DNA of 4,285 nucleotides from a plasmid. Positions within the stretch are counted from its first letter, which is position 1; each line of letters opens with the position of its first letter. The stretch lies in the NCBI RefSeq assembly GCF_057098645.1, contig NZ_JBXSPU010000005.1. One strand, given 5' to 3'. Below, piece after piece: positions 1-4,285 of this stretch. Both the position numbers and the translations under genes were made by a program. The notes beneath the pieces were generated by a model. It was not told the DNA's origin, made no database searches, and was given only the letters and a program-made list of their open reading frames with translations.

Positions 1-915
1 ATGAGCGCCGCGCTTCAATACTTCGAAGAAAATTTACCTCATCGTCCCTATCACACGGATGATCTCGCTTTCGGCCTTCGCATCTCCGGCAAAGGGCGCG
101 CTCTTCTTGCGCGGTACATCCAGCAGAACCAGCCTCATGCGCAGTTCTGGCTGGTTTTTGACGTTGACCGCGAGGGGGCAGCGATTGACTGGAGTGACCG
201 GAACGCTCCCGCGCCGAACATCACCGTAAAAAATCCTGTGAACGGTCATGCTCACCTGCTCTACGCGCTCAATATCGCCGTGAGAACCGCGCCGGACAGC
301 TCGGTTAAGGCGCTGAAATACGCCGCTGCGATTGAACGTTCGCTGTGTGAGAAACTTTGTGCTGATGTGAACTACAGCGGACTGATTTGTAAAAATCCGT
401 TCCACCTGGAATGGCAGGTGATGGAGTGGCGAGAGGAAGCCTATACCCTCGGTGAACTGGCTGATTATCTCGATTTGAGTGCCTCAGCGCGCCGTAGCAT
501 CGATAAACGTTACGGGATGGGGCGAAACTGCCACCTGTTCGAAATGACGCGCAAATGGGCTTACAGGGCGATTCGTCAGGGCTGGCCAGCATTCTCACAG
601 TGGCTTGATGCCGTGATTCAGCGTGTCGAAATGTACAACGCATCGCTTCCCGTTCCGCTTTCTCCGGCTGAATGTCGGGCTATTGGCAAGAGTATTGCGA
701 AATACACGCACAGGAACTTCACGCCGGAAACTTTCGCACAGTATGTGGCTGATACGCACACGCCAGAAATTCAGGCTACACGCGGTCGCAAGGGCGGTTC
801 TAAGTCTAAGCGCGGCACAGTAGCTACATCAGCACGCACGCTGAAACCTTGGGAGAAATTAGGGATCAGTCGCGCCTGGTATTACCAACTGAAAAAACGA
901 GGTCTCGTAGAGTAG
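1..915 (+). CDS. rep: ColE2-family plasmid replication initiator Rep (origin-specific, primase-type initiator)
   Basis: Uninterrupted 304-codon ORF from ATG at 1 to TAG at 913-915. The translation resembles, from memory, Rep of ColE2/ColE3-type plasmids (about 300 aa), for example WSDRNAPAPNITVKNPVNGHAHLLYAL, NYSGLICKNP and RQGWPAFSQWLDAVIQRVEMYNASLPVPLSPAECRAIGKSIAKYTHR. A ColE2-like origin sequence follows the stop directly, as in that family. The start coincides with the window edge, so upstream signals cannot be checked here. Not verified by search. Confidence 0.88.
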   Translation: MSAALQYFEENLPHRPYHTDDLAFGLRISGKGRALLARYIQQNQPHAQFWLVFDVDREGAAIDWSDRNAPAPNITVKNPVNGHAHLLYALNIAVRTAPDSSVKALKYAAAIERSLCEKLCADVNYSGLICKNPFHLEWQVMEWREEAYTLGELADYLDLSASARRSIDKRYGMGRNCHLFEMTRKWAYRAIRQGWPAFSQWLDAVIQRVEMYNASLPVPLSPAECRAIGKSIAKYTHRNFTPETFAQYVADTHTPEIQATRGRKGGSKSKRGTVATSARTLKPWEKLGISRAWYYQLKKRGLVE

Positions 916-1585: not shown

Positions 1586-3805
1586 ATGGCGATTTATCAT
1601 CTCAGCATGAAAATCATTTCGCGAAAAAACGGCTACAGTGCCGTTGCTTCTGCTGCCTACCGTTCCGGCTCTGTCATACCCGATGACCGTACCGGATTAA
1701 TCCACGATTACACCCGTAAACGCGGCGTTGATGATGCGGTCATTCTCACCCCTGCGAATGCACCGTCCTGGTGTGGTGACCGTTCCGTTCTCTGGAATGC
1801 GGTCGAGAAAGCCGAACAGCGCCGGAACTCCCAGCTGGCAAGGGAGATTGAACTCGCCATTCCCCGTGAGATTTCCCGCGAGGCCGCACGGGAGGCCGTT
1901 CTCGCTTTTGTCCGGGAAAACTTTGTCAGTCGGGGCATGATTGCCGATGTGGCGTTCCATCATATGGACCGGACCAACCCCCATGCACACATCATGCTGA
2001 CCACGAGAGCTGTCGGGGAAACGGGATTCGCAGGAAAGGTCAGGGACTGGAACGACCGGGCACTCGCCGAGACGTGGCGCGCATCATGGGCTGACCATGC
2101 GAACAGAGCGCTTGCGAACGCCGGCTACCAGGAAGAGATAGACCATCGTTCATACGAGCGTCAGGGACTGGAGAAAGCGCCGGGCCTTCACCTCGGAAAG
2201 GCTGCCTGTGCGATGGAAAAACGGGGCATGGAAACAGAACGCGGTGAGCAGAACCGCCTGATTAACAGCCTTAACCTGGAAATACAGGTTTCCCGCACAA
2301 GGCTGGCAGTCATCCAGGTACAGGAGAACGTGCGGAAACGGGAACTCAGCGATGCCGCACGTCGTGCAGCGGAAGCCCTTAATCTGACCATTCCCGCCGC
2401 GAATGCCTCAGCGGATACCCTGCGGGAATTCATTGCCACACTGCCGCAGGAATGCGGGAACGCATGGGAGATGACACCGGAGTTCGTGGCGATGAACGGG
2501 AAGGCAAACGACATCAAACGTGAGGGGAATGCGCTGGTGAAAGAGCGGGATATTCTCGAAAAAGAGATGACCGGACTCAGAAAAGCCCGTCCGGTAGCGT
2601 CCATCCTGTCAGAGCTTCCCCTGATGACATGGGCTGAACCGGAATACCGCAAAAGACAACTCCGCTTCTGGAAACTCGAGAAACAGATTGAATCTCTTCT
2701 CCGCACCTACAGGGCCGTGAAAGAACGGGACATTCCCGTCCGTCGTCAGGCCTTTGAAACGCAGTGGAATACGTGGATTTCGCCGGGAATGGCAGAGCTG
2801 AAAGAAAAACTGTCAGCACGGGAAGCGGAGCGGCGCAGGGAGGAAGCCGAAGCGGAAGCGCGCCGGAAGGAACAGGAATATGACGCACGGCTGAAACACC
2901 ATGATAACCATCGCCTGAGCCGAGAAACGGCATTAGCCGGGGTTATTACGGAGCTGGGGCGTGCCAGAGAGCCGGGAACGGGCAGGATAACCCGCTACAT
3001 GATGCTGAGTAACAGAGCCGGAGAATTCACGGTATGGGGTGATGAGCTGGCGCATTACCCCCAGAGTGTTCATGACCCGGTGAATGTTTACCTGTCGCCA
3101 GGCGGGGCTGTGATGGTCTCGGATATACGTGAGGGAATGCCAGAATCTCATGAGACGATGGCGCGGCCTGAGCGTGTGAGAATGTATTCCGGTGCGACGG
3201 TCCGGCATGTACTGGAACAGATGCGCCAGGGGTGGCCCTCTTACGGTTTTCCGGCGCTGCCGCATCACTGGCCGGATAATTTTTATTTCAGCGACGACCG
3301 CAGGCCCGCAGCCTCTCCGCTGCCGTCAGCGCACCGGGTGGACGTCACCGCTTATGCGGCACCGGAGCAACTCATGCCCGTTGTCTTTTCGACAGAGCGA
3401 AACAGCAGGACGCTGAATCTGCTGTTGTGCGAAGGGCCGGAGGAAATGCTTGTCGGTTTTGTGCGCCTGGAGGACGAGCTGCGTCCCGTTCTTGCGCTTC
3501 CGTCGCCGGATTACAGTCATCTGATGGTAAGCATCATCACAGAGAACGGGATACACCTGGCAGGCTACGGTGAGGCCATAAACCGTGATGCTGATACTCC
3601 GTACCCACCGGAACCGAAGCTGATGCAGTTCAGGCTTAAGGGCTGTCAGGACACGCTTTTTGCTGCCATCAACAAACCGGAAGAGATGCCGGATTATCTC
3701 TTCCGTCAACTCGGATTTAATCAGACCTGGCATGAATGGAAGCGGGACGAACAGCACAGGCAACAACAACGACGCCCCGGACATTACCGGGGCATGAGTA
3801 TGTGA
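1586..3805 (+). CDS. mobA: Mobilization relaxase MobA (MobA/MobL family, MOBQ), with a long C-terminal region of unrecognised function
   Basis: Frame is open from GTG 1499 to TGA 3803-3805. I place the start at ATG 1586 because the product then begins MAIYHLSMKIISR, the canonical N-terminus of MOBQ relaxases (RSF1010 MobA begins MAIYHLTAKTGSR). Catalytic Tyr25 is at codon 1658-1660 and the histidine-triad motif HHMDRTNPHAHIM at residues 125-137 (about 1958-1996). WADHANRALANAGYQEEIDHRSYERQG also matches RSF1010 MobA (WADHANRALERAGHDARIDHRTLEAQG). No strong Shine-Dalgarno precedes 1586, so the start is not exact. Residues from about 240 to 740 have no motif I recognise. Confidence 0.9.
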   Translation: MAIYHLSMKIISRKNGYSAVASAAYRSGSVIPDDRTGLIHDYTRKRGVDDAVILTPANAPSWCGDRSVLWNAVEKAEQRRNSQLAREIELAIPREISREAAREAVLAFVRENFVSRGMIADVAFHHMDRTNPHAHIMLTTRAVGETGFAGKVRDWNDRALAETWRASWADHANRALANAGYQEEIDHRSYERQGLEKAPGLHLGKAACAMEKRGMETERGEQNRLINSLNLEIQVSRTRLAVIQVQENVRKRELSDAARRAAEALNLTIPAANASADTLREFIATLPQECGNAWEMTPEFVAMNGKANDIKREGNALVKERDILEKEMTGLRKARPVASILSELPLMTWAEPEYRKRQLRFWKLEKQIESLLRTYRAVKERDIPVRRQAFETQWNTWISPGMAELKEKLSAREAERRREEAEAEARRKEQEYDARLKHHDNHRLSRETALAGVITELGRAREPGTGRITRYMMLSNRAGEFTVWGDELAHYPQSVHDPVNVYLSPGGAVMVSDIREGMPESHETMARPERVRMYSGATVRHVLEQMRQGWPSYGFPALPHHWPDNFYFSDDRRPAASPLPSAHRVDVTAYAAPEQLMPVVFSTERNSRTLNLLLCEGPEEMLVGFVRLEDELRPVLALPSPDYSHLMVSIITENGIHLAGYGEAINRDADTPYPPEPKLMQFRLKGCQDTLFAAINKPEEMPDYLFRQLGFNQTWHEWKRDEQHRQQQRRPGHYRGMSM

Positions 3806-3837
3806 TATCCGGGGCTGCACCCCGAACCCCGCCAACG

Positions 3838-3880
3838 TCTCACGGGACACGAAAAAATTCCGCGTCCCGTGAGGCGTTTT
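3838..3880 (+). terminator. Candidate intrinsic terminator of mobA
   Basis: Inverted repeat CTCACGGGAC (3839-3848) / GTCCCGTGAG (3864-3873) with a 15-nt loop, followed by GCGTTTT (3874-3880), 34 nt after the mobA stop. The long loop is atypical. A smaller hairpin CGGGG(CTGCA)CCCCG sits at 3810-3824. Confidence 0.5.
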
Positions 3881-3951
3881 CTGGATGAGAAAGTTTGCCG
3901 TTTTGACCCGTTCGCGCTTCTGAACGGTCGAAACCGATCGCGCATCGCTTT

Positions 3952-3969
3952 CGTGAATAGTTATGCAGA
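3952..3969. promoter_or_regulatory. ARG-box-like element (candidate ArgR accessory site of the cer-like site)
   Basis: cgTGAATagttATGCAga compared with the ARG box consensus tnTGAATwwwwATTCAnw: TGAAT is exact and ATGCA differs from ATTCA at one position. Its centre lies about 120 bp upstream of the Xer core centre, similar to the ArgR site spacing in cer-type sites. Confidence 0.4.
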
Positions 3970-4068
3970 CCCCTGAAAACGATTCTGACGCGTTTTTCTG
4001 GTTTGGCCTGGTGTTTTCTTGTCTTTTTGTGTTTTTTGCGTCAGAACGCGTCTGAGAGCGTTTTAAGG

Positions 4069-4096
4069 GGTACGTACAACAGGAGTTATGGTAAAT
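4069..4096 (+). other. cer-like Xer site-specific recombination core (XerC arm, 6-bp central region, XerD arm) for plasmid multimer resolution
   Basis: GGTACGTACAA (4069-4079), CAGGAG (4080-4085), TTATGGTAAAT (4086-4096). The right arm is identical, and the left arm has one mismatch, to the ColE1 cer arms as I recall them (GGTGCGTACAA / TTATGGTAAAT). The central region is 6 bp (cer has 8; psi and dif have 6). About 170 bp of upstream sequence is available as accessory region. Confidence 0.7.
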
Positions 4097-4268
4097 GGAT
4101 CGGGTTTTGGGGAATAATCGACAGGGTTTGCCGTTGGGTGTAGTGTAAGCGACTGAAAAACAAACGCCCCGTAAATCGTGCTCTCACCGCCAAGATTGAT
4201 CACGAAATTACAGGGCGCCGGGTTCCGCGTCTCCCGATGGGAAAGCGCGGTTAGTTAAACTGTGTACC

Positions 4269-4285
4269 GAGAGGAATCGTAACAC
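4269..4285 (+). promoter_or_regulatory. Shine-Dalgarno-like element positioned for rep if the window is a circular replicon
   Basis: GAGAGGAA at 4269-4276 lies 9 nt before the end of the window, and the rep ATG is window position 1. If 4285 joins 1, this is a ribosome-binding site with a spacer of about 9-10 nt. The window length is also plasmid-sized. Circularity is not provable from the sequence alone. Confidence 0.3.

Follow-up and report, generated by a model that had tools for sequence, protein, structure and literature searches.

We conclude, with a probability of about 0.93, that positions 4097-4285 of the window (the whole 4,285-nt stretch of plasmid DNA that was analysed), continuing across the junction to about position 18, are a ColE2-family replication-control module (incA/RNAI) that comprises the rep promoter and leader together with the antisense RNA, RNAI. 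What this analysis itself contributes is evidence from homology, from position and structure, from covariation and strand bias, and from the conservation of promoter elements; the existence of RNAI and its repression of Rep translation would carry over from the literature on nearly identical plasmids. Of the two readings that the original prediction had offered for this region, ColE2-type antisense control stands, and an Rcd-like transcript from the neighbouring Xer site does not. The control region is already known from work of 1989-1994, and this copy, which matches described plasmids at 96-100% identity, holds no new biology.

Plasmid context and homology

The 4285 bp of the window are a complete small plasmid backbone of the pColE8 type. 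Except for the colicin operon, which is absent here, the whole window is 98.6% identical to pColE8, and other near-identical 4.3-kb plasmids, likewise without colicin genes, exist. By its domains, Rep belongs to the ColE2/ColE3-type initiator families, and positions 4097-4285 lie directly upstream of rep (Table 1). Since the finding depends on position 4285 joining position 1, we verified the circularity that had initially been assumed: in three reference plasmids, pColE8, pColE3-CA38 and the ColE2-type pIGMS5, the homologs of positions 3950-4285 stop exactly one base before the annotated rep start.

Three further observations concern the backbone. Positions 916-950, directly after the rep stop (ACCAAATAAGCCTATATCAGATAACAGCGCC), lie where the 32-bp origin is located in ColE2-type plasmids and presumably have its form. 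At 3834-3878, ~30 nt past the stop codon of mobA, a nearly perfect inverted repeat runs into a stretch of T residues; it is terminator-like, and an Rfam 'rox1' match to this repeat is spurious. On the minus strand, positions 1141-1407 hold an 88-aa ORF without a Pfam match, which related plasmids label as 'mobilization protein' or 'hypothetical protein'.

Table 1 Coordinates of features in the window. Positions written with two dots belong to minus-strand elements
Feature	Position	Strand	Description
rep	1-915		304 aa; profile matches to Replicase PF03090 (7.7e-44) and PriCT_1 PF08708
Candidate antisense (RNAI) promoter, -35 TTGAAG	13..18	-	inside rep codons 5-6; 16 nt from the -10
MobA/MobL relaxase	1586-3805
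ORF	4003-4143	+	≤46 aa
ORF	4063-4203	-	≤46 aa
ORF	4086-4193	-	≤46 aa
Spacer, XerD half-site to candidate rep promoter	4097-4117		no specific feature assigned
Candidate rep promoter (Prep)	4118-4146	+	-35 TCGACA 4118-4123, 17-nt spacer, -10 TAGTGT 4141-4146
Predicted rep mRNA 5′ untranslated leader, ~130 nt	4153-4285	+	predicted RNAI target; immediately upstream of rep in all relatives
U-tract UUUGUUUUU	4156..4164	-	directly after stem-loop II; predicted intrinsic terminator and RNAI 3′ end
RNAI stem-loop II	4165..4218	-	foot helix CGCCC(U)..GGGGCG; inner helix 4205-4201 with 4180-4176; 20-nt apical loop 4200..4181
ORF	4178-4258	+	26 aa; GTG 4178 to TAA 4258
RNAI stem-loop I	4225..4250	-	11 bp with one bulge; loop AUC
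SD-like purine-rich element GAGAGGAA	4269-4276	+	11 nt upstream of the rep ATG (position 1)
Candidate antisense (RNAI) promoter, extended -10	4276..4284	-	TG 4284..4283, TACGAT 4281..4276

Alignment with the incA/RNAI region, which the original prediction had proposed as a check, gave 95.8% identity to pColE3-CA38 (NZ_KM287568) over all 189 nt of positions 4097-4285. The same stretch is 100% identical in several E. coli plasmids, and identity to pIGMS5 is 92% over 336 nt. The definition of incA/RNAI goes back to two plasmids, of which pColE3-CA38 is one. A published ColE2-P9 repA primer confirmed that, in the loci taken here to represent the ColE2/E3 type, rep starts as it does in authentic ColE2-P9. 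More than 1,100 plasmids in PLSDB carry homologs, and these fall into three classes: 49 records that match over the full length (pColE3-CA38 at 95.8%, several at 100%), several hundred Col156-type small plasmids that match positions 4097-4215 only, and ~400 large IncF plasmids that match positions 4097-4180 only.

In the large IncF plasmids (~400 PLSDB records), the matching sequence is part of a dead ColE2-type replicon fragment, exemplified by positions 2291-3233 of the pUTI89-like NZ_CP069891. A cer-like site that continues through window-equivalent 4180, in the middle of stem-loop II, is there fused to rep nt 118-761; missing from the fragment are the candidate RNAI promoter, half of stem-loop II, the start and 3′ end of rep, and the ori. 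This fragment probably explains the Col156/rep_cluster_2131 replicon-typing matches on such plasmids.

Post-transcriptional control of rep in ColE2-like plasmids is exerted by RNAI, whose attachment to the 5′ UTR of the mRNA prevents translation (PMC6856555, PMC5304414). Because a single substitution (position 4231) separates the RNAI predicted for the window from that of the ColE2/E3 type, we would expect positions 4097-4285 to share the ColE2/E3 mechanism and, probably, its IncA specificity.

Candidate promoters, leader and the predicted antisense transcript

Stock consensus promoter and terminator scans of the window, and of pColE8 across the junction, reported nothing in this region. The candidate antisense promoter was missed because it straddles the window junction, and the predicted terminator because the loop of stem-loop II exceeds the 8-nt limit of the stock scan. 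We replaced these scans with a relaxed, junction-aware scan, for which ColE1 served as the positive control. The best plus-strand candidate was the rep promoter listed in Table 1, a weak match to the consensus (8/12). Both of its hexamers are invariant among 56 distinct upstream variants, and positions around them vary in the same set (4108-4109, 4115-4117, 4126, 4131-4132 and 4139). The spacer to the left of the promoter holds the most variable positions of the upstream block (4104, 4108-4109 and 4115-4117). An alternative rep promoter that uses AATAAT (4113-4118) was rejected, since relatives have AATGGT there. A start from the preferred candidate would place the 5′ end of the rep mRNA at ~4153-4156.

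The leader downstream of this start holds the mirror images of both stem-loops of the predicted RNAI, with the target loop CCGCCAAGA at 4187-4195. The region had been noted to end in a Shine-Dalgarno-like element; this corresponds to GAGAGGAA, and a purine-rich block is kept at the S-D position in 22 of 22 leader variants. In the fold of the free leader, the GAGGAA of this element is presented in the loop of a small hairpin with a probability of being unpaired of ~1.0, and in the thermodynamic model one arm of this hairpin falls inside the RNAI target. We also tested a switch in which binding of RNAI causes the SD-like element to pair with a CCUC in rep (nt 37-40). The modelled accessibility of the element fell from 0.75 to 0.19, but we did not adopt the switch, given that CCUC is CCGC in ColE2/E3, that the SD-like element of ColE2/E3 differs, and that the pairing is consequently not conserved.

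On the minus strand, the relaxed scan gave a sole candidate, TTGAAG-16-TGnTACGAT, which is also a weak match to the consensus. The -10 is TACGAT or TAGGAT in 19 of 19 junction variants, so that TAnnAT is preserved throughout. The complement of the -35, CTTCAA, is invariant in all junction variants while the flanking codons vary, although the -35 lies within the rep coding sequence and its conservation is for that reason not independent evidence. A transcript from this candidate promoter is predicted to have its 5′ end at ~4268-4270 and a length of ~113 nt, in agreement with the ~115 nt that we take to be the length of ColE2 RNAI.

Secondary structure of the two strands

Fold prediction of both strands, suggested at the outset as a check, favoured the minus strand. 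The minus strand of the 189 nt formed two stem-loops and a U-tract with z = -2.42, versus z = +0.34 for the plus strand; for the predicted RNAI (4270..4154), the minus strand reached -44.1 kcal/mol with z = -3.15, compared with z = -1.73 on the plus strand.

The GC-rich hairpin that had been noticed by eye at about 4225-4250 exceeds chance. Its minus-strand form, stem-loop I, has a predicted energy of -16.5 kcal/mol (z = -4.58), and none of 200 shuffles was as good; the plus-strand form has -14.6 kcal/mol (z = -2.84). The G.U pair 4231/4243 of the window is an A-U pair in ColE2/E3, and hence the pair is kept on the minus strand. The evidence for stem-loop I thus consists of thermodynamic support and this one G.U to A-U change, with no true compensatory changes. 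Among the control regions compared, stem-loop I was found only in the ColE2/ColE3/ColE8-type module; in other ColE2-related plasmids, short modules unrelated to it take its place.

Stem-loop II is larger than stem-loop I and had not been singled out in the original prediction. Its apical loop carries UCUUGGCGG (4195..4187), and the stem-loop is presumed to provide both the target-recognition loop and the terminator stem. The layout on the minus strand is that of a terminator, with the GC-rich foot helix followed by UUUGUUUUU; this U-tract shows no variation among those plasmid relatives whose retrieval did not depend on the motif. On the plus strand, the U-tract becomes an A-run before the stem, without terminator function.

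Covariation and strand bias

We compared 22 distinct leaders, taken from plasmid loci and metagenome stretches, and all of them end in a stem-loop II of one kind. To obtain the metagenome stretches, we scanned for an 18-mer of the terminator foot; of the 120 stretches found, about two thirds were true homologs, and ~35 matches were discarded as chance matches without rep context. Retrieval by the 18-mer forced the invariance of positions 4153-4170 in the metagenome set. RNAalifold on a MAFFT alignment recovered only the invariant foot, with the inner helix out of register, and realignment with a covariance model solved this.

Across the leaders, the foot is CGCCCC..GGGGCG followed by UUUGUUUUU, and the inner helix varies by substitutions that come in pairs, as in UCGUGA/UCACGA versus CAUGUU/GACAUG. 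The loop is UCUUGGCGG in the window type and in most others, and two types have the one-base variants UCUUGCCGG or UCUGGCCGG. In an alignment that was fitted to the structure and that represents only about five or six independent lineages, standard pairs occupied 90.9% of the cells of stem-loop II in the 22 distinct sequences, as against at most 51% in all slid controls; compensatory change affected 7 of 14 pairs, including 5 of the 6 inner-helix pairs, and the covariation score was reached by 0 of 500 shuffles. A covariance model of stem-loop II and the U-tract matched the window once (4153-4218, minus strand, 70 bits) and ColE1-type controls not at all, and it separates true copies both from these controls and from truncated remnants.

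Since covariation of a helix is mirrored on the mRNA strand, we sought strand-specific signals, namely G.U bias and the U-tract. A G.U pair on the minus strand corresponds to an A.C mismatch in the mRNA, and G.U pairs favoured the minus strand by 10:2. These signals bear on an explanation that reduces the region to the rep promoter plus a structured, cis-acting 5′ UTR with an effect on, for instance, mRNA stability or ribosome loading, the helices belonging to the mRNA and no functional antisense RNA being made. Such an explanation fits the covariation equally well with plus-strand pairing, both hairpins still form in their plus-strand versions, and the GAGGAA element is presented in a loop; moreover, ColE2 leader sequences are reported to be needed for efficient Rep translation. 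However, not only the G.U bias but also the folding energies favour the minus strand, on which alone the fold significantly beats shuffles. The U-run follows the stem on the minus strand only, the conserved candidate promoter with the extended -10 points in the antisense direction, and RNAI has been established experimentally for plasmids that are 92-96% identical here (PMC6856555, PMC5304414). We therefore regard a purely cis-acting leader as very improbable. The antisense and cis roles are not mutually exclusive, and the leader may also act in cis. Together with homology, position, candidate promoter, stem-loops and U-tract, the covariation strongly supports the proposal that rep is under ColE2-type control by an antisense RNA against its leader.

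Short open reading frames

The ORFs that overlap the region encode at most 46 aa and are not conserved across variants, as anticipated by the initial judgement that no plausible ORF lies here. Start, frame, stop and length shift from one variant to another, and substitutions are mostly non-synonymous. A small leader peptide or protein encoded in positions 4097-4285, which would couple rep translation as in IncB, IncI-alpha and R1, is suggested by the presence of short ORFs on both strands and by the 'hypothetical protein' that some database records annotate over the homologous stretch. Every such ORF, however, varies in the ways just described, none is preceded by an S-D sequence, and the 26-aa ORF spans a 34-nt segment that is missing from Col156-type relatives. 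We dropped the leader-peptide idea because the ORFs are not conserved, and we give it practically no credence.

The adjacent Xer site

A cer-like site with an Xer core (4069-4096) adjoins the region on its left, and Rcd is encoded within the resolution site cer (PMC4393325) and is transcribed towards the XerCD core in ColE1 (an argument from orientation; PMC2831885). This arrangement invites the reading that an Rcd-like checkpoint RNA starts at a promoter in the Xer site and runs rightwards across the core into positions 4097-4285, and a transcript starting near 4040-4065 had indeed been considered. We found no rightward promoter there; the one rightward candidate associated with positions 4040-4096 uses the AATAAT at 4113-4118, which is not conserved. 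Positions 4097-4285 are outside the resolution site, on its XerD side. Similarity to ColE1 ends at the Xer core, beyond which identity is 31%. The expected end of such a transcript is just ahead of the core, where both plasmids have a small hairpin and a T-run. In ColE1, for which the coordinates of Pcer and Rcd are those we infer from the scan, TTGCAT-15-TAAAAT was found ~90 bp upstream of the core. The stretch of ColE1 that lies between its Pcer-like promoter and Xer core (3828-3912) folds with -40.9 kcal/mol (z = -5.3), as Rcd would lead one to expect, whereas the position-equivalent segment of the window (3985-4070) folds with -19.7 kcal/mol (z = -0.5). An Rcd-like RNA running into this region is thus scarcely credible.

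Other features of the Xer site also differ from those of ColE1. The hexamers of the window that are equivalent to Pcer are degenerate, and ColE2-type cer-like sites may lack the Rcd checkpoint RNA. The Xer core of the window, GGTACGTACAA-CAGGAG-TTATGGTAAAT, has a 6-bp central region, and that of ColE1 cer is 8 bp (TTAAGGGA). Among relatives, the central region varies (CGGGAG, CAGGAG or CGGGAA).

Proposed mechanism

In the antisense control by RNAI that we propose, a weak plus-strand promoter at ~4118-4146 would start the rep mRNA near 4153-4156, and a minus-strand promoter overlapping the rep start codon would make RNAI, the incA product, constitutively. RNAI would form stem-loops I and II, end at the U-tract (4164..4156) and be perfectly complementary to almost the whole rep leader. 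The exposed loop UCUUGGCGG of RNAI would most likely make the first contact with the leader loop CCGCCAAGA, and pairing would then spread to a full duplex at ~4156-4268, ending 1-3 nt upstream of the ribosome-binding element. This duplex would block the loading of ribosomes on rep, and would thereby keep Rep limiting. Where exactly the transcripts end, that kissing loops make the first step and that translation is blocked sterically are points we infer. The concentration of RNAI would track plasmid copy number, providing negative feedback on Rep synthesis and on the initiation of replication, and plasmids with the same RNAI would be incompatible (IncA). For ColE2-like plasmids, it is known that RNAI acts in trans against Rep translation and causes IncA incompatibility (PMC6856555).

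Mosaic control regions

Several relatives carry recombinant control regions. In one (V11), stem-loop II of the window type is joined to a Col156-type 5′ module, and in another (V12) the type with the UCUUGCCGG loop is joined to a different 5′ module. In recombinant regions of this kind (L118, positions 1695-1795; L059; L115), the exchange lies near window-equivalent 4171 and 4215-4224. In addition, five metagenome contigs (L013, L038, L049, L058 and L063) each carry two ColE2-type control regions that differ in RNAI type, such as V17 and V21 in L049; either cointegration of compatible plasmids or joining during assembly may account for these contigs.

Recombination at junctions near 4171 and 4215-4224 could create new incompatibility types. 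That stem-loop I is a separately exchangeable element with a role of its own, such as a second determinant of RNAI recognition or stability, or a tuner of rep translation, we consider possible but unlikely. If it were true, only the distinct function of stem-loop I would be new, as the mosaicism of the replicons was already reported in 1994. The 1994 report is said to describe a mosaic structure of ColE2-type replicons, and work by Hiraga in the same year reportedly described a stem-loop with a conserved loop, five IncA types being distinguished and nine loop nucleotides being identical in four of them.

Annotation of the control region

An Rfam search of the whole window with E values up to 10 found nothing in positions 3950-4285 and only chance matches elsewhere. 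Rfam 15 has no family for the control region, which is also left unannotated in the RefSeq records inspected; as a result, genome scans keep flagging the region as 'unassigned'. Homologs are present in 904 of 5,426 complete E. coli genomes. The covariance model of stem-loop II and the U-tract could seed an Rfam family, and the type of RNAI loop and stem predicts IncA groups among the common Col156/ColE2-like small plasmids. Copy-number control of this kind is textbook material and the region adds nothing to the mechanism; the practical point is the annotation gap.

Comparison with known systems

The antisense RNAs of the Inc RNA/CopA type (IncI-alpha, IncB and IncFII R1) share several features with the module predicted here: a cis-encoded antisense RNA of ~60-115 nt against the leader of the rep mRNA, recognition through an exposed loop, repression of the initiator at the level of translation, feedback on copy number, and incompatibility. 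The loop UCUUGGCGG of the window contains UUGGCG, the hexanucleotide that is named for the ColIb-P9 Inc RNA loop (Asano 1998). As regards sequence, the UUGGCG loop motif alone is common to the two, and Inc RNA/CopA has neither a sequence match nor an Rfam match (E up to 10) in this region. The leader peptide and the activation step by coupling and pseudoknot formation are without visible counterpart in the window, and the window Rep is a primase-type initiator of a family other than those of the Inc RNA/CopA replicons.

RNAI of ColE1 (RF00106) is likewise a constitutive antisense regulator of copy number, and its pairing is also begun by loop contacts. Unlike the RNAI predicted here, ColE1 RNAI acts not on an mRNA but on RNAII, the precursor of the primer; it has no Rfam match in this region of the window, and the window replicon is of the Rep-dependent ColE2 type, which sets it apart from the RNAI/RNAII system. 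ColE1 Rcd is also a small plasmid-encoded regulatory RNA, but it lies inside cer, targets tryptophanase and is without counterpart in positions 4097-4285.

The Col156-type relatives, which represent other IncA specificity types, share the rep family, the upstream block (4097-4170), the architecture of stem-loop II, the U-tract, the candidate antisense promoter and the junction region. Their stem-loop II loop is the same as that of the window, or nearly so; some types have loop changes (UCUUGCCGG, UCUGGCCGG), and the inner helix of stem-loop II shows compensatory differences. In contrast to the window, they are without stem-loop I, being 34 nt shorter, and have different 5′ modules.

With incA of ColE2-P9 and ColE3-CA38, the subject of work by the Itoh laboratory from 1989 to 2009, the window has in common the position directly upstream of a ColE2-type rep, the stem-loops, the loop, the U-tract and the candidate antisense promoter. 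Over positions 4154-4285, only three substitutions separate the window from ColE2/E3. The one at 4231, which gives G.U in the window and A-U in ColE2/E3 in stem-loop I, is the sole change within the predicted RNAI, also in comparison with pIGMS5. At 4274, the window has GAGAGGAA where ColE2/E3 has GAGAGAAA, and the window sequence is the better match to an S-D element; the substitution at 4282 falls on the 'n' of the TGn of the extended -10. Over the same positions, 4154-4285, pColE8 is identical to the window.
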